This document shows positions 2,796 to 33,182 of a stretch of DNA of 40,186 nucleotides, one piece after another. The DNA lies in the IMG/VR virus record IMGVR_UViG_2728369554_000009, positions 1 to 40,186 of that record. One strand, 5' to 3'. The number at the start of each line of letters is the position of its first letter. The first letter of the stretch is position 1. The DNA comes from a virus (Duplodnaviria; Heunggongvirae; Uroviricota; Caudoviricetes). The position numbers were made by a program, and so were the translations under genes. The notes under the pieces were generated by a model that was not told where the DNA came from, did not search any database, and saw only the letters and a list, made by a program, of their open reading frames with translations.

Positions 2796-3677
2796 TTACA
2801 TAGATGTTTCGTTTAATTCTTCCCGACGAACGCTGTAAACGTCGGTGGCTTTTGCCAGCAGTTCGTCATCATCTGAAAGTTTTTGTGCAATGTATTTGTA
2901 AGCCTTATCCAGTTCGGAGACAGTGCTGTAATTCATCGCTGCGCTGGTAAAGGCCATCAGCATTTCTTCTGGATCACGGCTATCCGCTTTACGAGTTTGC
3001 TCATCAGGCTTTTTCACTGGTTTAGCGTTGATCAGACTGTTCATTCCCGCAGCAGTAGTTGTTTGCGGAGTAATGTCTCGCTCAACGCGCGGTGCCGTTT
3101 CCTGTAATTCGTCAGGGGTGTAAACACCGAGAAGCACATCAGGAGCGTGCAGGCGAGCCCATCGTTTCGTGCAAAGATAGGCAAGCTGCTGGCGCGGATC
3201 CTGTTCCCACAATGGAGAGTTACGCACTCCGGCTTGCGCCATACTGATGGTAAGCTCACGGGGTTCTGTTTCACCTTTAAGAACTGCTGACACAGTTACC
3301 GTCAGATTCGGTGATTTATCTGTTTTGCCGTTAACATTCGACCAGTCACCGCTCCAGCGATAATTCAGGCGTGTCGCCAGCAGGCTGGAAGAGGATACGA
3401 CCGCGTTTACCAACTGTGCTTCGTAGCCTAACGTTCCGTTTACCACATGCGTTTTCTGCGCCACGGCGAAAGGGTTCATTCCCCACTGTGCCGCCTGCAT
3501 AGTCACCGCCAGGCAATCGGCAGGTTTGCCTTCAAGATGTTTCGGTACAGTCGCTTTGCTTTGTGACATCAACTCCGCGAAACGCACCAGTTGATTCATG
3601 CCCTCGGGGCTGAAGATTGCCGCAGCAGTGCCTACAGTTGCGCCTGGTTGTGATGTGATTGCGATATCATTGCTCAT
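2796..3677 (-). CDS. bet: Bet (Red-beta)-like single-strand annealing protein
   Basis: 293 aa. 'GMNPFAV', 'LGYEAQL' and especially 'ERDITP' recall lambda Bet (GLNPW.., ..PERDITP). ATG 3677..3675 overlaps the TGA of the upstream exonuclease (ATGA). Confidence 0.7.
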   Translation of the reverse strand: MSNDIAITSQPGATVGTAAAIFSPEGMNQLVRFAELMSQSKATVPKHLEGKPADCLAVTMQAAQWGMNPFAVAQKTHVVNGTLGYEAQLVNAVVSSSSLLATRLNYRWSGDWSNVNGKTDKSPNLTVTVSAVLKGETEPRELTISMAQAGVRNSPLWEQDPRQQLAYLCTKRWARLHAPDVLLGVYTPDELQETAPRVERDITPQTTTAAGMNSLINAKPVKKPDEQTRKADSRDPEEMLMAFTSAAMNYSTVSELDKAYKYIAQKLSDDDELLAKATDVYSVRREELNETSM

Positions 3678-4495
3678 ACATACATATCCTGTTTACGTGC
3701 CCAGTCAGGGCGTTTAATAATTTCCACGCCGCCCCATTCATCATTTATGCGGCATTCGTGATAGGTATTCAGATCCCGGCGGAACAGAGCGTGCCCGGCA
3801 TCGACATCCGGCGCATCCAACTCGAACACGCGTACCGGATACCGACCACAATCAATGCTTTCGCTCACGGCAAGAAAGAAAAAACCATGCGGTTGACCAG
3901 TAACCCTCGTTGCGCCTTCGCGGTACATTGCGTCCTGCACGTGGTAGCGGAATTCCTCGATGTGGCGTGCAAAACGGTCCATATCTGCAACCTTTTTCAC
4001 GTCGACGATCACGTTGTGCTCGTTCAGCCATTTGTCTGGACGAATTCGGCACAACTCACCCGTCTCTTCATCGTTCCAGTACATTGATGCTTCGCAGTAA
4101 CCAGGTGCTTCCAACATCCAGCGTGCCGCCGGATGAGCCATTGCGCTATCACGCATGAGCTCAAGTTTTCGCCACTGCTCGACATCAAGTACCGTAATAC
4201 CCATATCCGCCACATCACGAAGAAATGCTTCTTCGTCAGCTTTACCTTGTTTTGTCCGACGATCGAATTTCGGTGACACGATGAAGCGTTTGTCGAATTC
4301 TCCAGGTTCCAGAAGCAGGCAGTGCAATGCGGTTCCCATATCCAATGCAGACTTTTTCTCTTCGTCTTCTGGTGCTGCCTGAACCCATTTAAGAAGCGCC
4401 GGATTCTTGGCAACCATGTCCAGTTGCGACTTACTCACGCCGTCACCTGCGTGGTAGTCTTCGTTGCTGATGCCGAAATAAATTCCCGGTTTCAT
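3674..4495 (-). CDS. PD-(D/E)XK (YqaJ/RecE-C-like) recombination exonuclease, partner of Bet
   Basis: 273 aa. 'DGVSKSQLD', 'EASMYW..D..GELCRIRPD' and 'IVDVKK' (D..E.K nuclease core). Coupled on both sides by 4-nt overlaps. Confidence 0.7.
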   Translation of the reverse strand: MKPGIYFGISNEDYHAGDGVSKSQLDMVAKNPALLKWVQAAPEDEEKKSALDMGTALHCLLLEPGEFDKRFIVSPKFDRRTKQGKADEEAFLRDVADMGITVLDVEQWRKLELMRDSAMAHPAARWMLEAPGYCEASMYWNDEETGELCRIRPDKWLNEHNVIVDVKKVADMDRFARHIEEFRYHVQDAMYREGATRVTGQPHGFFFLAVSESIDCGRYPVRVFELDAPDVDAGHALFRRDLNTYHECRINDEWGGVEIIKRPDWARKQDMYV

Positions 4496-4965: not shown

Positions 4966-4980
4966 TTACCGTTGAGGTAA
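4966..4980. promoter_or_regulatory. operator copy TTACCGTTGAGGTAA, overlapping the start of the leftward early promoter (pL-like); extra half-site TTACC at 4953
   Basis: Perfect TTACC-N5-GGTAA palindrome. On the minus strand it sits just downstream of TTGACA(5006..5001)-CATAAT. Confidence 0.7.
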
Positions 4981-5027
4981 TGATTATGCGTATCTGGTTT
5001 GATGTCAATAGATATGAGTTAAAAAAA

Positions 5028-5042
5028 TTACCCATAAGGTAA
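5028..5042. promoter_or_regulatory. operator copy TTACCCATAAGGTAA upstream of the leftward early promoter (pL-like) -35
   Basis: Perfect palindrome between the repressor terminator and the minus-strand TTGACA. Confidence 0.7.
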
Positions 5043-5054
5043 TCTTGCTGGCAA

Positions 5055-5078
5055 TAAAAAAGCCGCCATGAGGCGGCT
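5055..5078 (-). terminator. rho-independent terminator of repressor transcript
   Basis: Minus strand: AGCCGCC-ucau-GGCGGCU followed by UUUUUU (the + strand A-run is 5055..5060). Confidence 0.7.
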
Positions 5079-5099
5079 TACTTACTGAAAAATATGATT

Positions 5100-5684
5100 T
5101 TATTGTTTGTTTTTTTCGTTCTGGCTGATGACAAATTCAATGTAACTTTCGATCTTTGCCTTCTCTGTTTCGGGTAACAATGCGTAGCGCGAGCGGTCAT
5201 AGTTGATAGTCGCAGGGTCGTGCGGGTGAATCAGTAATTCATAGCCGTGACGCCCGAATGCGGATGCAACATTCTCCAGGGTGGAAATGGAAACGCTGAC
5301 CTCATTGTTTAACAGGCGGCTGATTGTCACCTGGGCGACGCCGGATGCGCGGTGAAGTTTTCCCTGTGTTGAAAGGTAGCGGCTTTCGCTCATCCAGCGT
5401 TCCAGGTTGTGAGCCGCCAGCTGACCAATGTCGCTTGGGCCGACAGGCTGAAAACCTTCCTGAGAAAGCGAGCGATCGATATCAAGCCAGTTACGGGGTT
5501 TATTGGCGGCAGCTTCAATTTTTCGCGCAACCTGGTCGCCGATAACCTTCTTGCCAAGAGCCCAGCGGTTTACCAGATTTGCCTGAGTTCCAAGTTTTTC
5601 TGCCATCCGCGTCTGAACACCATTGAATTCACGGTCGATCAAGTCGTTGAGATTTTGCCTGCGGACGTCCTGGATACTTTTCAT
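5100..5684 (-). CDS. phage repressor, HTH protein without LexA/S24 peptidase domain
   Basis: 194 aa. 'GVQTRMAEKLGTQANLVNRWALGKK' HTH and a second HTH-like 'GVAQVTISRLL'. No Ala-Gly / Ser..Lys autocleavage motifs. Divergent from the cro-like gene, with three operators in between. Confidence 0.65.
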   Translation of the reverse strand: MKSIQDVRRQNLNDLIDREFNGVQTRMAEKLGTQANLVNRWALGKKVIGDQVARKIEAAANKPRNWLDIDRSLSQEGFQPVGPSDIGQLAAHNLERWMSESRYLSTQGKLHRASGVAQVTISRLLNNEVSVSISTLENVASAFGRHGYELLIHPHDPATINYDRSRYALLPETEKAKIESYIEFVISQNEKNKQ

Positions 5685-5739
5685 TTTCTGGAAAATCGCC
5701 TCATATATGAATCAGTAGATGATTCAATTTAAAGCAATA

Positions 5740-5754
5740 TTACCCAACAGGTAA
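5740..5754. promoter_or_regulatory. operator TTACCCAACAGGTAA (OR-like site 1)
   Basis: Perfect palindrome in the repressor/cro intergenic region. Confidence 0.7.
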
Positions 5755-5756
5755 AT

Positions 5757-5771
5757 GCACCTCATAGGTAA
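5757..5771. promoter_or_regulatory. operator GCACCTCATAGGTAA (degenerate left half)
   Basis: Right half-site perfect, left half 3/5. Two bp from the previous site (17-bp centre spacing). Confidence 0.5.
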
Positions 5772-5787
5772 CTATCCTTGATTTTTG

Positions 5788-5802
5788 TTACCTTATGGGT
5801 GA
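5788..5802. promoter_or_regulatory. operator TTACCTTATGGGTGA (degenerate right half) inside spacer of rightward promoter
   Basis: Lies between TTGATT (5779..5784) and a TATTTA/GAATAT -10 upstream of cro-like ATG 5839. Confidence 0.5.
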
Positions 5803-5838
5803 ATATTTATTATCTGAAATAAATATCAGGCAATAGCT

Positions 5839-6069
5839 ATGAGCGATAACGGACATTTCGATTTCAAAAAGCACTGGCTTGCACTTACTCCGGATGAGCG
5901 TGAAGCCTTCGCACAGGAAGCCGGAACGACGAGTCACTATATCCAGACTCACTTAACAGGTAAGCGAAAAATGCCAGGTAAAGTATTGATGAATGGGCTT
6001 TTTAAAGCCTGTAAAACAAGACAATGGCTGCGCTCAAAAGCAGAACTGGCATACTTCTTCTACTCATGA
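5839..6069 (+). CDS. Cro-like small HTH regulator
   Basis: 76 aa. 'AFAQEAGTTSHYIQTHLTGKRKMP' is an HTH of the YdaS/Cro-like type. First gene downstream of the operator cluster. Confidence 0.6.
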   Translation: MSDNGHFDFKKHWLALTPDEREAFAQEAGTTSHYIQTHLTGKRKMPGKVLMNGLFKACKTRQWLRSKAELAYFFYS

Positions 6070-6090
6070 TATCCAGCTACAACCCTCTGT

Positions 6091-6114
6091 AGACCGCCAC
6101 CCGGCGGTCTTTTC
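6091..6114 (+). terminator. intrinsic terminator after cro-like gene
   Basis: AGACCGCC-accc-GGCGGTCT followed by TTTTCAT. Confidence 0.55.
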
Positions 6115-6124
6115 ATATCTATTC

Positions 6125-6139
6125 GTACCTCAAAGGTAA
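6125..6139. promoter_or_regulatory. operator-like GTACCTCAAAGGTAA (1 mismatch)
   Basis: Immediately after the terminator and upstream of the replication genes. Confidence 0.45.
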
Positions 6140-8093: not shown

Positions 8094-8108
8094 TTACCCA
8101 ATGGGTAA
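8094..8108. promoter_or_regulatory. operator TTACCCAATGGGTAA
   Basis: Perfect palindrome. Confidence 0.65.
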
Positions 8109-8155
8109 CAAAATGTTCTTAGATCTATTGATTTCGTGTCTTATGTGGTTTTTAA

Positions 8156-8170
8156 TTACCTTAGAGGTAA
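8156..8170. promoter_or_regulatory. operator TTACCTTAGAGGTAA fused to -10 (TTTAAT|TACC) and overlapping the RBS of the next gene
   Basis: TTGATT-N17-TTTAAT promoter. The right half-site GAGGTAA doubles as the SD 4 nt before ATG 8174. Confidence 0.65.
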
Positions 8171-10460: not shown

Positions 10461-10501
10461 GAGTAGATTATGCATGATGAATTTGATGGGTTTTGAATAC
10501 T

Positions 10502-10527
10502 GCCGCCAACTATGGCGGCTTTATTTT
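10502..10527 (+). terminator. intrinsic terminator ahead of late operon
   Basis: GCCGCC-aactat-GGCGGC followed by TTTATTTT. Confidence 0.6.
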
Positions 10528-10538
10528 GCATGGTACTA

Positions 10539-10553
10539 TTACCACAACGGTAA
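10539..10553. promoter_or_regulatory. operator TTACCACAACGGTAA fused to -10 TACTAT upstream of terminase genes
   Basis: Perfect palindrome. Same TACTAT|TACC context as the copy at 32168. Confidence 0.6.
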
Positions 10554-10570
10554 CTATTACCACGGTGGTT

Positions 10571-11167
10571 ATGATGCCTGCTGAACCTAAAACCTATAAA
10601 CGCAAATCAACGCAATTTAAGCCACTAACAGCAATGCAGGAGGCTTATTGCCAGTCATACATCAAAACGCCTGAAAACCAGACTCAGGCAGCGATTAACG
10701 CAGGATTCTCCCCAAATACAGCGGCAGTTAAAGCCAGTGTCATGATGCGCGATGAACGCATTCAAAAACGGATTGCCGAGTTGATGGAGGAGCGCAACAA
10801 ACGAATGCGCGTCAGTGCTGATTACGTTCTCATGCGCCTGGTGGAGATCGACCAGATGGACGTGATCGACATCCTCAACGACGATGGGAGCCTTAAGCCA
10901 ATCCGCGAGTGGCCGAAAATCTGGCGCACTACGCTTAGCGGCTTTGATCTGTCATCGACCATCATGAACATGAACGAGGATTCGATAGAGACAATCCTCA
11001 AAAAAATTAAATGGCCTGACAAGGTGAAGAACCTCGAACTGATTGGTAAGCACGTCGACGTCAAAGCATTCAAAGAACGCCTGGATGTTAATGTGAATGT
11101 GACAATTGCTGATCGCATAGCAGCAGCCAGGAAGCGACTCAAAGAACGTCAGGATGGTAATCAGTGA
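10571..11167 (+). CDS. terminase small subunit
   Basis: 'AYCQSYIKTPENQTQAAINAGFSPNTAAVKASVMMRDERIQKRIAE' resembles the Terminase_2 family. Start at ATGATG after GGTGG. Confidence 0.7.
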   Translation: MMPAEPKTYKRKSTQFKPLTAMQEAYCQSYIKTPENQTQAAINAGFSPNTAAVKASVMMRDERIQKRIAELMEERNKRMRVSADYVLMRLVEIDQMDVIDILNDDGSLKPIREWPKIWRTTLSGFDLSSTIMNMNEDSIETILKKIKWPDKVKNLELIGKHVDVKAFKERLDVNVNVTIADRIAAARKRLKERQDGNQ

Positions 11168-12639
11168 CAGATACAGTGTTATCTCCTGAAGAGCAGTTGA
11201 TCGAGGATATTGCAGGGTTTACTCACGATCCGCTTGGTTATGCCCTCTATGCGTTCCCGTGGGGGGAAGAGGGGACTGAACTGGCACATGCTACTGGCCC
11301 ACGTCAGTGGCAGGCTGATGCGTTCCGAGAGATACGTGATCACCTGCAGAATCCAGAGACGCGCTATCAGCCGCTTATGCTGGCACGCGCTTCTGGTCAC
11401 GGTATTGGTAAATCCGCATTCATCTCAATGCTGATCAACTGGGGCATGTCCACTTGCGAGGATTGTAAGGTCGTGGTGACCGCCAACACCGACAACCAGC
11501 TACGAACGAAGACCTGGCCGGAAATTATCAAGTGGTCGAACCTTGCTATCACGGAAGACTGGTTTACCTGTACCGCTACCGCGATGTACAGCAATGACCC
11601 TGGGCACGACAAGCGGTGGCGTGCTGACGCAATACCCTGGTCTGAGCACAACACTGAGGCGTTCGCCGGACTACACAACGAGCGCAAACGCATCATCGTG
11701 GTGTTTGATGAAGCGTCGAACATTGCGGATCTGGTGTGGGAAGTTGCTGAGGGTGCGCTTACGGACGAAGACACTGAGATTATCTGGGTGGCGTTCGGAA
11801 ACCCGACGCGTAATACCGGACGTTTCCGTGAATGTTTCCGCAAGTATAAACACCGCTGGAAAACTGCGCAGATTGACAGTCGGACGGTGGAAGGTACCAA
11901 CAAACAGCAGTTGCAGAAATGGGTTGATGACTACGGGGAAGACAGCGACTTCGTTAAAATCCGTGTGCGTGGCATATTCCCTGATGCATCTGAATTGCAG
12001 TTTATCCCTACCGGTCTTACTGACGAGGCAATGAAACGGGTGGTAACCGCTGCGCAGGTTGCACATGCTCCGGTGATAATCGGCGTTGACCCGGCATACT
12101 CCGGCGTTGATGACGCTGTGATATACCTGCGGCAGGGGCTACACAGTAAGGTGCTGTGGACTGGCAACAAGACTACCGACGATCTGATTATGGCGAAGCG
12201 TATCGCTGACTTTGAAGACCAGTATCAGGCTGACGCGGTGTTCATCGACTTCGGTTACGGAACCGGTTTGAAGTCAATCGGTGACGGCTGGGGTCGTACA
12301 TGGCAACTTGTTCCGTTCGGTGGCGCGTCTACTGACCCGCAGATGCTTAACAAGCGTGGGGAGATGTTCAACTCATGTAAGACATGGCTGAGGCTGGGCG
12401 GCATGCTGGATGACCAGGAAACTGCAGACGACCTGTCGGCGGCAGAGTACAAAGTTCGCGTGGACGGTAAAATCGTTATCGAACCGAAGGAGGATATCAA
12501 GGAGCGGCTTGGGCGTTCGCCGGGTAAAGGCGATGCGCTACTGCTGACGTTTGCGTTCCCTGTGTCGAAGCGTCTGCGAATTCCCGGTCAGCAGAACCAG
12601 CAAGGCAAGGCCATCACAGATTACGATCCCTATGCTTAA
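11164..12639 (+). CDS. terminase large subunit
   Basis: 491 aa. Walker-like 'ARASGHGIGKS' and 'IIVVFDEAS'; C-terminal nuclease-like region. GTG start overlapping the small-subunit stop. Confidence 0.85.
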   Translation: MTDTVLSPEEQLIEDIAGFTHDPLGYALYAFPWGEEGTELAHATGPRQWQADAFREIRDHLQNPETRYQPLMLARASGHGIGKSAFISMLINWGMSTCEDCKVVVTANTDNQLRTKTWPEIIKWSNLAITEDWFTCTATAMYSNDPGHDKRWRADAIPWSEHNTEAFAGLHNERKRIIVVFDEASNIADLVWEVAEGALTDEDTEIIWVAFGNPTRNTGRFRECFRKYKHRWKTAQIDSRTVEGTNKQQLQKWVDDYGEDSDFVKIRVRGIFPDASELQFIPTGLTDEAMKRVVTAAQVAHAPVIIGVDPAYSGVDDAVIYLRQGLHSKVLWTGNKTTDDLIMAKRIADFEDQYQADAVFIDFGYGTGLKSIGDGWGRTWQLVPFGGASTDPQMLNKRGEMFNSCKTWLRLGGMLDDQETADDLSAAEYKVRVDGKIVIEPKEDIKERLGRSPGKGDALLLTFAFPVSKRLRIPGQQNQQGKAITDYDPYA

Positions 12640-12682
12640 TCCGCTGGTGGGGATAATATCGTTGATATCCTCTGGTGAGGAT

Positions 12683-12715
12683 AAAACAAAGCCAGCTCAT
12701 AGGCTGGCTGTTTGT
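12683..12715. terminator. bidirectional terminator between convergent genes
   Basis: AGCCAGC-tcatag-GCTGGCT. U-run on the minus strand (AAAACAAA on +), weaker GTTTGT on the + strand. Confidence 0.6.
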
Positions 12716-12725
12716 GACATGTCAC
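12714..12725. promoter_or_regulatory. 12-bp palindrome GTGACATGTCAC (copy 2)
   Basis: Read in the sequence. Confidence 0.5.
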
Positions 12726-12729
12726 GGTG

Positions 12730-13062
12730 TTATTTCGGTAGATTGTGTTTGGCATTCGACTCGTCTATCACGTAACGCATTGCAGTTCGACCGAGATTAC
12801 CAGGATCTTCATGCAGACTCACTCGTGCCTTTAGGAGCACACATTCAGCCTTGACATAGTTTGCTGGAATTATTCCTACCTCGGCATTTTTAAATGCCTC
12901 CTTCACCGCCTCACCGTTGTACTGACCGCCAAGCAACTCTGTACATGTCAGGTTGTTATGGATAATTGCAAGGAGATCTTTAATCTCTTCACGCAGGTTT
13001 ACAATCGCCATCGCGGCATTGATAGCTGCGGCATAGCGCTCAGCTGCAGTCTTCTCTTTCAT
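12730..13062 (-). CDS. moron-encoded hypothetical protein (110 aa from MKEKTAAERY)
   Basis: Strong SD AAGGTGA 5 nt before ATG 13062. An intrinsic terminator hairpin abuts the RBS. Function unknown. Confidence 0.5.
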   Translation of the reverse strand: MKEKTAAERYAAAINAAMAIVNLREEIKDLLAIIHNNLTCTELLGGQYNGEAVKEAFKNAEVGIIPANYVKAECVLLKARVSLHEDPGNLGRTAMRYVIDESNAKHNLPK

Positions 13063-13074
13063 GATTTTCACCTT

Positions 13075-13099
13075 AAAAAAATGCCCGGACGAACCGGGC
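13075..13099 (-). terminator. minus-strand intrinsic terminator/attenuator directly upstream of moron RBS
   Basis: GCCCGG-uucgu-CCGGGC followed by 7 U (the + strand A-run is 13075..13081). Confidence 0.6.
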
Positions 13100-13141
13100 G
13101 AATGATCAACGGAGTGCCTTCCTTGGCGGGTGATGCAGGGT

Positions 13142-13357
13142 TTACAGCGCAACGTCATCGGAATGGCGTTCTGCTGTAAAAAGGGCGGTGGTCAGAAGAA
13201 GGAGAACTGCCACCGCCAAAGCTACACGCATTGCCTGGTACTGCCGTATCACGGTCCTAACGTGATTGGGTTGTGGTGGCCGGTGCTGATCTCCGGCTTG
13301 AAATATGCTCAGTGTTAGCTGCCACTCTCTCAAGAGGATATGCGTCATGATTTTCAC
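13142..13357 (-). CDS. possible small membrane-anchored leader protein (71 aa; alternative 29-aa hydrophobic peptide from ATG 13231)
   Basis: C-terminal 'MRVALAVAVLLLLTTALFTAERHSDDVAL' is a TM-like segment. No convincing SD. Confidence 0.25.
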   Translation of the reverse strand: MKIMTHILLREWQLTLSIFQAGDQHRPPQPNHVRTVIRQYQAMRVALAVAVLLLLTTALFTAERHSDDVAL

Positions 13358-13803
13358 TGAGTTTGTTGGGTAACCCTGACTTCCGGCTATTCACGCAGCT
13401 TGTCTTCCAACTCAGGCTTATGCCTTACCCATTCCCCCACGTTCACGGGGTGCGCATCAGCCTGCGCATTCACCACAACGGAAAGAGCACTGACTTCGAG
13501 CAGACCTTGGGCCCAGGAACGACGATCAATCTCAATGCTCTTACCTGTTGCATCCTCGTCTCTTCCGAGGTGTCACACCTGATCGCCGGGATGGTGAATC
13601 CCCGTGCGCGGAATAAAACCGCTCGACTTGCACATTCCGGCTACCTGGTTCGTTTGCCCGAGCAAGGGAGGGTGCCCCTTAAACGTATCCAGACCGCTAT
13701 CGGCGCATGTGCCATACGCCGTACTGCTCAAAATAAAAGCTCACTCCACCTGTTCAATTTAACGACAAGCCAGTCAGGTTAGTAACCGGAATGAACTCTT
13801 TGG

Positions 13804-13818
13804 TTACCTGAAAGGTAA
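13804..13818. promoter_or_regulatory. operator TTACCTGAAAGGTAA upstream of head genes
   Basis: Perfect palindrome. Confidence 0.6.
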
Positions 13819-13908
13819 TAATTTGTGCGTTAAATGTCAACTACCTACGATAAATAAATCATATGTGGTTAAATTGGTAATAATTTAATTGCGTACGGAG
13901 TCATTGAT

Positions 13909-14115
13909 ATGTGCATGGGTAGCTCACCATCAGTGCCTGCAACACCAGAAGTTCAGGCAGCACCACAGGAGCAGGATGCCGCCGTTGTTGATGCCCGCGA
14001 CGAAGAAACTCGTCGCCGTCGCGCTGCTGCTGGTCGTAGTTCTACGCTGCTTACCGGTTCTCAGGGTGACACATCAACCGCTAATACCAGCGGTAAAACG
14101 CTGCTTGGTCAGTAA
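13909..14115 (+). CDS. small hypothetical protein preceding portal
   Basis: 68 aa. SD GGAG 9 nt upstream. A nearly identical initiation region (GGAGTCATTGA) also precedes the portal gene. Confidence 0.4.
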   Translation: MCMGSSPSVPATPEVQAAPQEQDAAVVDARDEETRRRRAAAGRSSTLLTGSQGDTSTANTSGKTLLGQ

Positions 14116-14129
14116 CCGGAGTCATTGAA

Positions 14130-15809
14130 ATGGCGGAAACAACTAAAGAGCGATTGAACAAACAGTTCGCACAACTTGAAAGCGAGCGTCAGTCGTTCGA
14201 GCCGCACTGGCGCGAGTTGAGTGATTACATCAACCCGCGTGGTTCCCGCTTTCTGACTTCTGAGGTCAACCGTAACGATCGACGCAATACACGCATTATT
14301 GATTCGACCGGGACTATGGCGGCGCGCACTCTCGCCAGCGGCATGATGTCAGGCATCACAAGCCCCGCGCGTCCGTGGTTTCGCCTGGCTACGCCAGATC
14401 CTGAAATGATGGATTATGGCCCTGTTAAGTTGTGGCTTGAGGCGGTGCAGAACCGCATGAACGATATGTTCAATAAGTCGAATCTCTATCAGTCGCTGCC
14501 GCAGTTATACGGAAGCCTCGGCACATACAGCACTGGTGCAATGGCAGTGCTGGAGGATGACGAGGACATCATTCGCACAATGCCATTCCCGATAGGCAGT
14601 TACTACCTGGCTAACTCACCTCGTGGCAGTGTGGACACCTGTTTTCGCAAGTTCTCTATGACTGTTCGTCAGCTTGTTCAGGAGTTCGGGCTAAATAACG
14701 TCAGCGAATCCGTAAAAAGCATGTGGGAAAGCGGCACCTACGAGAAGTGGATTGAAGTGATGCATTCGGTTTACCCGAACATTGACCGCGATACATCGAA
14801 GCTGGATAGCAAGAACAAGCCATTCAAATCGGTTTATTACGAGGTTGGTGGCGATAACGACAAGTTGTTGCGTGAGTCCGGATTCGATGAGTTTCCAATT
14901 ATGGCTCCGAGCTGGGAAGTTAACGGCGAAGATGTTTATGGATCATCATGCCCGGGTATGCTGGCGCTTGGACCTGTTAAGGCATTGCAGCTTCTCCAGA
15001 AGCGCAAGTCGCAGTTGATTGATAAAGCCACCAATCCGCCGATGGTTGCTCCGACTTCCCTCAAGAATCAGCGTGCCTCCCTTCTTCCTGGCGACATCAC
15101 GTATATCGATCAGATTACTGGTCAGGATGGTTTCAGGCCTGCTTATCTGGTTAACCCCAGTACAGCAGATTTGGTGGCAGACATTCAGGACACCCGTCAA
15201 ATCATTAACAGCGCCTACTTTGTCGATCTGTTCATGATGTTGCAGAACATCAATACCCGCTCGATGCCTGTTGAAGCGGTGATCGAAATGAAAGAAGAAA
15301 AACTTCTGATGTTGGGGCCGGTTCTGGAGCGTCTGAACGACGAATGTCTTAATCCTCTCATTGACCGCGCTTTCTCGATGATGGTGCGTAAAAACATGCT
15401 GCCGCCACCGCCTGACGCGATGGAAGGTATGCCCCTGAAGGTCGAATACATTTCCGTCATGGCTCAGGCGCAGAAGTCTATCGGCCTGTCCAGTCTGGCG
15501 TCCACGGTTAACTTCATTGGTCAACTTGCGCAAGCGAAACCAGAAGCTCTCGACAAACTCAACGTTGATCAGGCGATCGATGCATTCGCTGATATGTCCG
15601 GAGTGTCTCCAACCGTCATTGTTCCGCAGGAACAGGTTGAGCAGGCTCGCCAGCAACGGGCACAGCAACAACAGCAGCAACAAATGATGGCGATGGGGAT
15701 GGCGGCGGCACAGGGTGCCAAGACGCTAAGCGAAGCTAAAACTTCGGATCCGAGTGTTTTGTCAGCTATGGCGAATGCAGTTAGTGGTCAGGGTGGGCAA
15801 TCACAATGA
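14130..15809 (+). CDS. portal (T7 gp8-like head-to-tail connector)
   Basis: 559 aa. N-terminal 'LNKQFAQLESERQSFEPHWRELSDYINPR' and overall podovirus connector organisation. Confidence 0.8.
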   Translation: MAETTKERLNKQFAQLESERQSFEPHWRELSDYINPRGSRFLTSEVNRNDRRNTRIIDSTGTMAARTLASGMMSGITSPARPWFRLATPDPEMMDYGPVKLWLEAVQNRMNDMFNKSNLYQSLPQLYGSLGTYSTGAMAVLEDDEDIIRTMPFPIGSYYLANSPRGSVDTCFRKFSMTVRQLVQEFGLNNVSESVKSMWESGTYEKWIEVMHSVYPNIDRDTSKLDSKNKPFKSVYYEVGGDNDKLLRESGFDEFPIMAPSWEVNGEDVYGSSCPGMLALGPVKALQLLQKRKSQLIDKATNPPMVAPTSLKNQRASLLPGDITYIDQITGQDGFRPAYLVNPSTADLVADIQDTRQIINSAYFVDLFMMLQNINTRSMPVEAVIEMKEEKLLMLGPVLERLNDECLNPLIDRAFSMMVRKNMLPPPPDAMEGMPLKVEYISVMAQAQKSIGLSSLASTVNFIGQLAQAKPEALDKLNVDQAIDAFADMSGVSPTVIVPQEQVEQARQQRAQQQQQQQMMAMGMAAAQGAKTLSEAKTSDPSVLSAMANAVSGQGGQSQ

Positions 15810-30023: not shown

Positions 30024-30290
30024 ATTTACATCGCACTCCTCTTGTGCCATAGTAATCGGGCACTGGCAAAATCCAGTGCCGGGATTGGTCTCCCGGATTA
30101 CTACAGAGGCACATATGCCGCATAAGCGGTTTTTTTATGTGTAAAGCGCACCTATTCTATGGTGGGCTGTGTGGGGGCACCGAAAGGTGCGCCGGGTTCC
30201 TTTGTAGCCGGTAAGACCAACTCTGCACAGTTCACCACCATCTGATTGGTCTCAGCGGTGGTGATTAACCTAACTACAAAGGTGATCGCC
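30024..30290 (+). ncRNA. conserved structured 5' leader of antirepressor A (hairpins plus internal terminator 30118..30136)
   Basis: First 95 nt are identical to the inverted copy at 33197..33103. Hairpins 30059..30080 and CCGGGA-ttggtc-TCCCGG 30079..30096. CCGC-ataa-GCGG followed by 7 T. GNRA hairpin GCACC-gaaa-GGTGC with a compensatory variant in copy B. 8-bp stem TCACCACC/GGTGGTGA. Confidence 0.5.
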
Positions 30291-32911: not shown

Positions 32912-33182
32912 GATGGCGTCTCCACTTAGCGAATTACATCACCACCGCTGAGACCAATCAGATGGTGGTGAACTGAACGGAGTTGGTCTTACCGGCCTAA
33001 GTGGTACCGGCGTCCTTTCGGACCCCCATTCAGCCCACCATAATTCTGGCATGACTGTGCTATACGCATAAAAAAACCACGTCTGGCGTGGTATGCGCCA
33101 CTTAGTAATCCGGGAGACCAATCCCGGCACTGGATTTTGCCAGTGCCCGATTACTATGGCACAAGAGGAGTGCGATGTAAAT
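32912..33182 (-). ncRNA. conserved structured 5' leader of antirepressor B (inverted paralogue of 30024..30290; internal terminator at 33070..33092)
   Basis: ACCACG-ccaga-CGTGGT followed by 7 U. The stem is retained despite sequence divergence from copy A. Confidence 0.5.

Follow-up and report, generated by a model that had tools for sequence, protein, structure and literature searches.

We analyzed a 40,186-nucleotide (nt) stretch of viral DNA from an E. coli prophage (IMG/VR record IMGVR_UViG_2728369554_000009; hereafter, the window) and focused on the block between terL, which encodes the large terminase subunit, and the portal gene. The genes for terS, terL, a gp3-like protein, the portal, and a GP7 capsid protein identify the window as a prophage of the epsilon15/phiV10-like podoviruses (genus Uetakevirus). 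An earlier note on this DNA had described the block as a locally inserted moron: a 110-amino-acid (aa) gene behind a terminator fused to its ribosome-binding site, with a possible small membrane leader open reading frame (ORF) and noncoding DNA upstream. We think it reasonably likely that the block is instead a leftward accessory operon of epsilon15/phiV10-like phages, in which a repressor-controlled array of structured RNAs precedes an exchangeable cargo gene. Conserved RNA modules, which the earlier note overlooked, fill the whole stretch from 13840 to 13075 on the minus strand. The locus contains these features:

10493-11167: terS (matches Terminase_2).
11164-12639: terL.
12690-12709, minus strand: terminator-like hairpin on the terL side, AGCCAGC-CUAUGA-GCUGGCU with a U-rich tail (terminator scan).
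12730-13062, minus strand: cargo gene, 110 aa, with ATG at 13062 and stop at 12730 (phrog_27507).
13060-13099, minus strand: cassette junction, made up of the terminator T2, a Shine-Dalgarno (SD) sequence, and the ATG (terminator scan and alignment of loci). The T2 hairpin is GCCCGG (13099-13094), loop TTCGT, CCGGGC (13088-13083), A, and T7 (13081-13075); the SD sequence is AAGGTGA (13074-13068).
13100-13177, minus strand: conserved stretch between T1 and T2, with a hairpin ACAGC...GCUGU (alignment and minimum-free-energy fold).
13178-13238, minus strand: DicF-like element with the terminator T1 (sub-threshold Rfam match and conserved stems). The T1 stem is GGCGGUGGCAG / CUGACCACCGCC (13217-13184) with loop UUCUCCUUCUU, followed by U5 (13182-13178).
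13248-13266, minus strand: hairpin H, AUCACG-UUAGGAC-CGUGAU.
13270-13479, minus strand: scaffold RNA, module B (covariance model R1 and covariation). The closing stem is GUUGUGGUG (13479-13471) / CACCACAAC (13278-13270); its 5' strand is followed by the linker AAU, hairpin 1 GCGCA-GGCUGA-UGCGC (13467-13452), a 151-nt insert (13451-13301), and hairpin 2 GCCGG-AGAUCAGCA-CCGGC (13297-13279), which abuts the closing stem.
13483-13542, minus strand: module A, a 10-base-pair (bp) stem AAGAGCAUUG (13542-13533) / CAGUGCUCUU (13492-13483) around a 40-nt variable loop.
13554-13720, minus strand: leader module L (long-range helix and covarying hairpins).
13804-13840, minus strand: candidate leftward promoter, with TTGACA (13840-13835), a 17-nt spacer, and TACCTT (13817-13812).
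13909-14115: gp3-like gene (matches phrog_831).
14130-15809: portal gene (matches Head-tail_con).

The block is not a local insertion in this prophage. A leftward unit lies at the same position, between terL and gp3/portal, in every Uetakevirus relative that we examined, including phiV10, O157 typing phage 9, BUCT554, a Klebsiella phage, epsilon15, and K. oxytoca prophages. The earlier note had suggested asking whether terL and the portal gene are adjacent in related prophages: all of these relatives have a gap between them. The claim that the block interrupts the order terS-terL-portal holds in comparison to other phage groups, but not within Uetakevirus, where all of the relatives examined share this gap. 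Only two parts vary across these relatives: the terL-adjacent gene and the middle of the noncoding stretch. As judged by sequence comparison, the block between terL and the portal gene is a conserved, genus-wide unit with a swapped insert and a swapped cargo gene. This version of it is rare: the region is 100% identical in E. coli BCE049 and 99.4% identical in strain C6, and these are the only 2 of 5,426 complete E. coli genomes that carry the full region.

The stretch upstream of the cargo gene does not seem to encode proteins. When we compared the candidate ORFs in 12730-14115 to Pfam, PHROGs, NCBIfam, and PADLOC, the only matches were the 110-aa protein (phrog_27507) and the gp3-like protein (phrog_831), and no ORF in 13358-13800 matched any of the four libraries. 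This agrees with the earlier note, which saw no credible ORF there and proposed that 13358-13800 might hold a promoter and a noncoding RNA; our results support both proposals. A conserved gene that had been broken by a frameshift would be another explanation. However, the reading frames across the conserved flanks differ among loci, and therefore the conservation of the flanks is not protein-coding. The proposed leader ORF at 13142-13357 is spurious: relatives that are 79-93% identical over these positions have indels of 1, 2, 5, or 14 nt inside the ORF. Its first 19 codons lie within the hypervariable RNA insert, and what looked like a transmembrane segment (ALAVAVLLLLTTALF) is a G+C-rich terminator stem (13217-13184) read as codons. 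The proposed attenuation-like design has neither a leader peptide nor an attenuator; the apparent ORF is produced by a terminator hairpin. Relatives have comparable gene calls. Hypothetical proteins of 83 aa are annotated at L001 2025-2276 (phiV10p04), L003 2729-2980 (BUCT554), and L004 2643-2894, and they overlap a transfer RNA (tRNA) gene for arginine or module B; the call in L004 has the same strand as the RNA, and those in L001 and L003 run antisense to it. These calls are probably spurious and caused by the structured-RNA sequence.

Module B belongs to a large family of elements with fixed flanks and variable interiors. In R1, a covariance model that we made from B-type elements only, the window's B scores 78.9 bits (E = 5.5e-19). 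Two exact-motif scans, with at least 120 stretches each, place the flanks in over 240 viral contigs. A scan of species-representative genomes recovered an identical 25-nt motif from 51 species: many Enterobacterales, Aeromonas, Marinobacterium, Moraxellaceae, and Lysobacterales, as well as four betaproteobacterial genera, Martelella, and a metagenome-assembled genome (MAG) from the Geobacteraceae. Across 98 distinct pairs of flanks, 94.4% of cells are paired and 15 of the 24 base pairs have changed on both sides; none of 500 shuffles reached the observed covariation. The inner 7 bp of the closing stem are paired in 88-99% of sequences, and there is no spacer after hairpin 2. Hairpin 1 has fully compensatory variants (GCGAA/UUCGC, GACGG/CCGUC, and GCCAA/UUGGC in the sequences collected with the 3' flank as bait). 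The loops of the two hairpins, GCUGA and UCAGC, hardly vary and are complementary to each other. Covarying stems that carry fixed loops suggest contact with RNA or protein. Compensatory changes, including G-U pairs, are found in modules A and L and in T2 as well as in B.

We found at least 81 unrelated inserts between these flanks, with lengths of roughly 10-280 nt. The window's 151-nt insert is present in just 2 of the 5,426 E. coli genomes, and we found no similarity between it and host sequences. Two viral contigs (L106 and L127) have a related insert, with compensatory changes that keep three predicted hairpins; therefore, the insert would be a folded domain more than a linear seed. We considered whether the inserts might be the repeats of type III toxin-antitoxin systems, as their lengths are roughly multiples of 37 nt, but no tandem repeat was visible by eye (no repeat tool was run) and we dropped this idea. 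The invariant loops and the junctions also brought known ribozymes and riboswitches to mind, but Rfam gave no match. A literature search with the motif string found nothing.

Some other inserts resemble host RNAs. One group is similar to E. coli 16S ribosomal RNA, nt ~254-282, in the sense orientation (L079 4569-4688, L089, L100, L182, and L186); over 29 nt the identity is 86-90%, and E values go down to 1.5e-5. The flanking helix seems, by eye, to keep its pairing through two-sided changes. Exact 13-nt matches to 16S ribosomal RNA in L014 and L160 could be due to chance. Also, hairpin 2 of L159 (1242-1259; GCCGGAGAUCAGCACCGG) is weakly similar to positions 30-47 of RydB, an E. coli small RNA (sRNA) with no known function; with 13.7 bits and E = 1.5, this is probably chance.

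B-type elements are associated with tRNA genes in a strand-specific way. Within 700 nt of these elements there are 45 tRNAs (at 17 loci), all of them encoded on the element's strand and often just 8-13 nt away, and tRNAs abut the element in Massilia, in Aeromonas, and in the Geobacteraceae genome. In phiV10, a real tRNA-Arg(UCU) occupies exactly the slot of B, and the leader and trailer are shared. The phiV10 tRNA is preceded by module A and "GUU," the strand GUGGCAU of its acceptor stem aligns with GUGGUGA, and it is followed by H, the DicF-like terminator, T2, and the junction, as in the window.

The layout of B is itself tRNA-like, with a 7-bp acceptor-like stem, a short linker, a D-like arm, and a contiguous T-like arm. 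Given the 7-9 bp stem, the 3-nt linker, the two 5-bp hairpins, and the 3' strand without a spacer, we infer that B may be a scaffold in the shape of a tRNA, with a payload instead of the anticodon arm. B departs from a tRNA in that an insert of ~10-280 nt replaces the anticodon arm and the loops (GGCUGA and AGAUCAGCA) are noncanonical. In the window, the 3' strand is followed by A and then by CCC. We also considered whether the insert is itself a tRNA in a leader/trailer cassette, but ARAGORN found none in L003, L004, L008, or L011. A separate observation concerns L245, from the Geobacteraceae MAG: its insert looks like a nearly complete tRNA, with D-arm AGCUCAACUGGUAGAGC and T-arm GGUUCAACUCC, and a second tRNA directly follows the element. 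This would mean a tRNA nested within the scaffold.

Modules L, A, and H are also conserved. The long-range helix of L is formed by the invariant strings GGCACAUGCG.CG.UAGCGGUC and GGUAGCCGGAAUGUGCAAG, and its last hairpin is CCUCG-GAAGAGA-CGAGG (13570-13554). L is ~79% identical to the part of phage P1 that separates trnI from ban; copies also occur in PhiR63_1 and in Stx2c phages. RNAalifold analysis of 20 L sequences gave 27 pairs, of which 6 have compensatory changes, and strings of ~20 nt are 100% conserved in these sequences. No Rfam family matches L. Module A is the size of a tRNA, and in some relatives its loop contains a T-arm-like sequence (GGGUUCGAAUCCC). ARAGORN does not call a tRNA there; a homologue of A lies within the tRNA cluster of Phapecoctavirus. 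At least 9 of the 10 positions of the A stem pair in 116 of 166 distinct contexts, versus 15 of 166 after shuffling, and several of the 68 stem variants are fully compensatory. Hairpin H is conserved in 16 aligned loci, follows the tRNA-Arg in phiV10, and is present in the minimum-free-energy fold. More broadly, the modules are recovered in the minimum-free-energy fold of a 737-nt transcript.

Downstream of H, Rfam's DicF family (RF00039) matches positions 13230-13183 with 25.7 bits (E = 0.0059), which is below the gathering score of 48 bits; DicF from E. coli K-12 scores 76.7 bits. This element ends in T1, which the earlier note overlooked. With its stem of 8 + 3 bp and U5, T1 has the sequence features of an intrinsic terminator, and across 16 aligned loci its stems are conserved and its loop is variable. 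The conserved 3' hairpin of Rho-independent type (13217-13184 plus U5) is as expected for DicF. However, in a crude duplex-energy test, pairing between the element and the translation start of ftsZ (-28.2 kcal/mol) was no better than for shuffled sequences (mean, -33.2 kcal/mol; 88% of the shuffles were at least as good), so we rejected a DicF function for the element.

At the upstream end of the array, a perfect palindrome (TTACCTTTCAGGTAA, 13818-13804) covers the -10 box and the start region of the candidate promoter. Transcription would begin near 13805. With up to two mismatches allowed, the window contains 16 copies of the palindrome TTACCTnnnAGGTAA, versus 0.83 expected: at 4966-6139, 8094-8170, 10539, 13804, 29423, 30009, 32168, 33183, and 33563. 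These sites cluster at the immunity region and also front several other gene blocks. The homologous site of epsilon15 carries a repressor-binding annotation, and the promoter geometry there is the same; this layout is also found in K. oxytoca. By analogy, the promoter in the window would be under repressor control, and the dispersed palindromes suggest many separately repressed transcription units. The ZX5 paper has no operator data. An operator over the -10 box would argue against expression of the cargo gene from a repressed prophage. Elsewhere in the window, two inverted pairs of isrK and C4 antisense RNAs (30060-30242, plus strand, and 32961-33146, minus strand) exceed the Rfam gathering scores, with 61-79 bits; they are a duplicated immunity RNA of the P1/P7 type, and palindromes adjoin both copies (30009 and 33183).

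At the downstream end, the 110-aa gene (12730-13062), its SD sequence, and the GCCCGG/CCGGGC-U7 hairpin (13075-13099) lie exactly where the earlier note had placed them. With six G-C pairs, a 5-nt loop, and U7, T2 has the sequence of an intrinsic terminator, and epsilon15 has a compensatory version (GCCCAC-UUCG-GUGGGC) in an intact junction of T2, SD, and ATG. In 13 of the 16 loci that we aligned, conservation of the junction extends to the end of the ATG, and the genes that follow are unrelated. At least seven unrelated proteins begin there. Besides the 110-aa family, they include proteins of the Gp49/Sf6 gp66 family (PF13876) and a Tad2-like protein (Thoeris anti-defence 2, PF11195); of the others, one has 61 aa, one has 138 aa and a hydrophobic segment, and two are 123-144 aa long. 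The Tad2-like protein (173 aa) starts at the junction in L195, from about position 1358. Also, RefSeq places a DUF2829 protein at the same slot in E. coli PD23. The unit of epsilon15 (L006, 1500-1720) is reduced: the promoter, the operator, and the 5' part of L run straight into the 3' half of T1, and modules A and B are absent.

The other flank of the cargo slot, on its right-hand side, is the hairpin at 12690-12709, which terminates the cargo gene opposite the 3' end of terL. Positions 12685-12735 are kept in relatives with different cargo, and the annotation of phiV10 has a terminator there. Because the SD sequence and the ATG belong to the conserved junction, different genes would have been exchanged by recombination between the junction and the terL-side terminator.

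Our promoter scan found no sigma-70-like site between the T2 hairpin and the gene, nor anywhere from T1 to the ATG. Since a terminator abuts the SD sequence and no promoter-like site lies in between, the gene should be expressible only by readthrough from a promoter far upstream, as the earlier note had argued. The term moron fits in part: the gene is variable cargo, and at least seven different genes replace one another at one junction. However, it does not have its own promoter: the nearest candidate, ~740 nt upstream, is shared with the RNA array. Autonomous expression in the lysogen is doubtful, as the operator palindrome overlaps the sole good promoter.

The cargo protein itself is annotated in RefSeq as a hypothetical protein (WP_001561052.1). 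It matches phrog_27507 end to end, has full-length homologues with identity down to 61%, and its family gave 43 representative clusters at E ≤ 1e-3 in a profile search. At this slot, the gene is found in this prophage and in K. oxytoca prophages. The fold is predicted with confidence as a long N-terminal helix followed by an alpha-beta-beta-beta-alpha domain, and it has no significant match among solved structures. A double-stranded RNA-binding domain was considered as a candidate fold. The protein is probably an early accessory or counter-defence factor.

These patterns point to a course of transcription, processing, and readthrough and to roles for the operator, the RNAs, and the protein. 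The promoter at ~13840-13812 would be silent in the lysogen, because its -10 box lies inside the phage repressor operator, and would fire on induction or infection. The primary transcript, of ~630-730 nt, would consist of independently folding, stem-closed modules (L, A, B, H, and the DicF-like terminator) and would probably be cut into stable small RNAs, as for phage tRNA clusters, Qin dicBF, and P1 ban. In addition to the acceptor-like stem of 7-9 bp, the D-like hairpin, the payload, and the T-like hairpin stacked on the acceptor, the tRNA-like geometry of B would include an "elbow" of loop-loop pairing. The invariant scaffold would provide folding, processing, and stability, and the hypervariable insert (in the window, 151 nt with three hairpins) would be the functional payload. 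Transcription would mostly end at T1 or T2, and the fraction that reads through would allow translation of the cargo.

Several observations weigh against this scheme. Neither ARAGORN nor the Rfam tRNA model (RF00005) finds a tRNA in the window, and a natural, minimal B-type element of 62 nt has no tRNA match either. Module B does not match any Rfam family even at E ≤ 10 (including RF02076, across 12600-14200). The loop-loop pairing rests on nearly invariant loops with a single compensatory A-U case, and the conservation of the bait flank is inflated by the exact-motif scans that gathered the alignments. Folding of the single sequence is unexceptional, with z about -1.4. The promoter scanner made no call at 13804-13840, as the site was below its threshold: the -10 box matches at just three of six positions. 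The scheme also requires polymerase to get past two terminators. Finally, neither Pfam, PHROGs, NCBIfam, and PADLOC nor structure searches gave a recognizable function for the cargo protein.

How do other explanations compare? The original proposal was an autonomous moron that is expressed in the lysogen and attenuated by a membrane leader peptide and by the terminator fused to its ribosome-binding site. The juxtaposition of terminator and SD is indeed real and conserved, the gene differs among relatives, and an ORF at 13142-13357 exists. However, indels in close relatives disrupt this ORF, its hydrophobic portion is a translated terminator stem, and we saw no alternative antiterminator pairing linked to it; given also that the unit is present in all relatives examined and that its sole good promoter is under an operator, we consider a moron of this kind highly improbable. 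It is just as hard to believe that the inverted flanks are boundaries of cassettes at the DNA level, exchanged like attC sites or miniature inverted-repeat transposable elements (MITEs), rather than RNA structure. They are imperfect inverted repeats around hypervariable inserts, and the cargo genes are also swapped at a fixed junction, but the stems tolerate G-U pairs, all 45 tRNAs are co-oriented, no recombinase is associated with the element, and the repeat order is the opposite of that in attC. We dropped an attC- or MITE-like DNA element on the grounds of the strand bias and the G-U pairs.

A functionless, decaying remnant of a tRNA cluster, along with recombination scars, would account for the real tRNA-Arg in phiV10's slot, for the tRNA-sized module A with its T-arm-like pieces, and for the absence of tRNA calls from ARAGORN or Rfam. 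Still, decay is quite unlikely for a 25-nt motif that is identical in 51 species, from alpha-, beta-, and gammaproteobacteria to the Geobacteraceae MAG, with all stems maintained by compensatory changes and flanks kept around more than 80 unrelated inserts. Somewhat easier to defend, but unlikely as well, is a role in cis for the upstream RNA, and especially for L, as a put-like antiterminator or a processing platform, with no trans-acting sRNAs. Such an RNA would let polymerase pass T1 and T2 and reach the cargo gene, or would interfere with late transcription that converges from terL. L does lie directly downstream of the promoter, two terminators do precede the gene, the P1 copy lies between trnI and ban in a repressor-controlled operon, and strings of ~20 nt are 100% conserved. 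Against this, A and B are widespread without L, terminators, or cargo, for instance in tRNA clusters; epsilon15 has T2 and cargo but lacks A, B, and most of T1; and Rfam shows no similarity to described antiterminator RNAs.

We therefore favor the leftward operon with an RNA array and exchangeable cargo over these four alternatives. A further proposal about B is possible, although on balance doubtful: B could be a tRNA-mimicking carrier within phage tRNA arrays that is matured by the tRNA machinery and displays payloads, with the prophage sRNAs STnc100 and PasD as one enterobacterial branch. If so, and given that some payloads copy host RNA, the family would amount to a programmable "RNA display" system of phages. 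Its RNAs could act as decoys, sponges, or regulators, and they could target host factors or RNA-targeting defences, in an operon that is shared with anti-defence proteins such as the Tad2-like protein.

The 25-nt core of the scaffold is identical from Enterobacterales to beta- and alphaproteobacteria, and the insert is different almost every time. If variable payloads are what the scaffold presents, it would connect STnc100 and PasD with phage tRNA clusters, bring an RNA layer to early phage counter-measures, and serve as a natural, portable chassis for stable RNA expression. Small early phage proteins could be mined at the fixed junction of terminator, SD, and ATG, which is a hot spot; one protein there is Tad2-like. 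And a stretch that is usually left blank or misannotated, as in phiV10, BUCT554, and P1 plp/upl, encodes conserved RNAs.

Several known systems are similar in part. Like morons and the hot spots of temperate phages, the window has a small, variable, opposite-strand gene in the structural block that is bounded by terminators, with different genes in relatives. Unlike morons, this gene does not have its own promoter, and a probably repressor-controlled one, ~740 nt upstream, serves both the gene and an RNA array; the SD and ATG of the gene are part of a conserved junction; and the slot is fixed across the genus.

Phage tRNA clusters can also contain stable RNAs that are not tRNAs, such as the species 1 and 2 RNAs of T4. 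B-type elements resemble the RNAs of these clusters in that they are co-oriented with tRNAs, tRNA-sized or larger, closed by a stem, and replaceable by tRNA-Arg. They are found between tRNA genes or next to them, and the enzymes that process the tRNAs presumably release them too. They differ from tRNAs in that they are not detected as such and have neither an anticodon arm nor canonical D and T loops. Other structured RNAs from phages or prophages, including YrlA (a Y RNA that mimics tRNA) and the large, ornate phage RNAs ROOL and GOLLD, have tRNA geometry or tRNA neighbors, and the window's element is likewise a structured, noncoding phage RNA with tRNA geometry or neighboring tRNA genes. In the window's element, unlike in YrlA, it is the free ends that make up an acceptor-like stem. 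ROOL and GOLLD are much larger than the element, and Rfam shows no match between it and any of the three.

The unit also has parallels in Qin dicBF and the P1 ban operon: these are repressor-controlled prophage operons with a terminator-hairpin sRNA (UUUGGCGG...CCGCCCUUUUU) within a longer transcript. In the window, Qin, and P1, the DicF-like hairpin adjoins an STnc100-like element upstream of a small protein gene. The window's element differs from DicF in its 5' seed and its loop, and the order of modules is reversed relative to Qin. The P1 ban operon is controlled by C1 and has a dicF-like region, tRNAs, and scaffold elements, and the dispersal of the palindrome across the window's genome resembles that of the C1 operators of P1. 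In P1 (L005, minus strand), two tandem scaffold elements lie between tRNA-Thr and tciA, at 3774-3875 and 3491-3614; they score 71.2 and 35.9 bits in R1, and the second is also a sub-threshold match to STnc100. Because these elements underlie plp and upl, which are annotated on the opposite strand with unknown function, both ORFs may be misannotations. In Qin of K-12 (L133, 2455-2582), the dicF-dicB intergenic region is an STnc100-like scaffold, ~20 nt after DicF, that scores 34.4 bits in RF02076 and 34.4 bits in R1; it is not annotated in K-12.

STnc100 and PasD have been described as prophage sRNAs that derive from a common ancestor and have different seed regions (2026 preprint, PMC13192938), and the function of STnc100 has been called unclear (PMC12370729). 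Neither a tRNA-like reading nor an association with tRNA arrays was described in the papers that we searched. The STnc100 consensus (RF02076) has the same layout as B: a GGUG/CACC closing stem, an AAU linker, a first hairpin, and a variable middle. Both also have a hairpin of the CCGG type that abuts the closing stem, and both are borne by prophages. Unlike in STnc100, hairpins 1 and 2 and the complementary loops of B have other sequences, the insert is more variable (in the window, folded and 151 nt long), and the elements range far beyond the Enterobacteriaceae. R1 finds RF02076 sites in P1 (35.9 bits) and after dicF in K-12 Qin (34.4 bits), with E about 1e-7; this comparison involves sub-threshold sites only, as the P1 and Qin relatives score 33-34 bits in RF02076 and its gathering score is 47 bits. 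Based on the shared layout and the matches of R1, we file B as a divergent and much wider branch, outside RF02076, of the already known STnc100/PasD kind of prophage sRNA.

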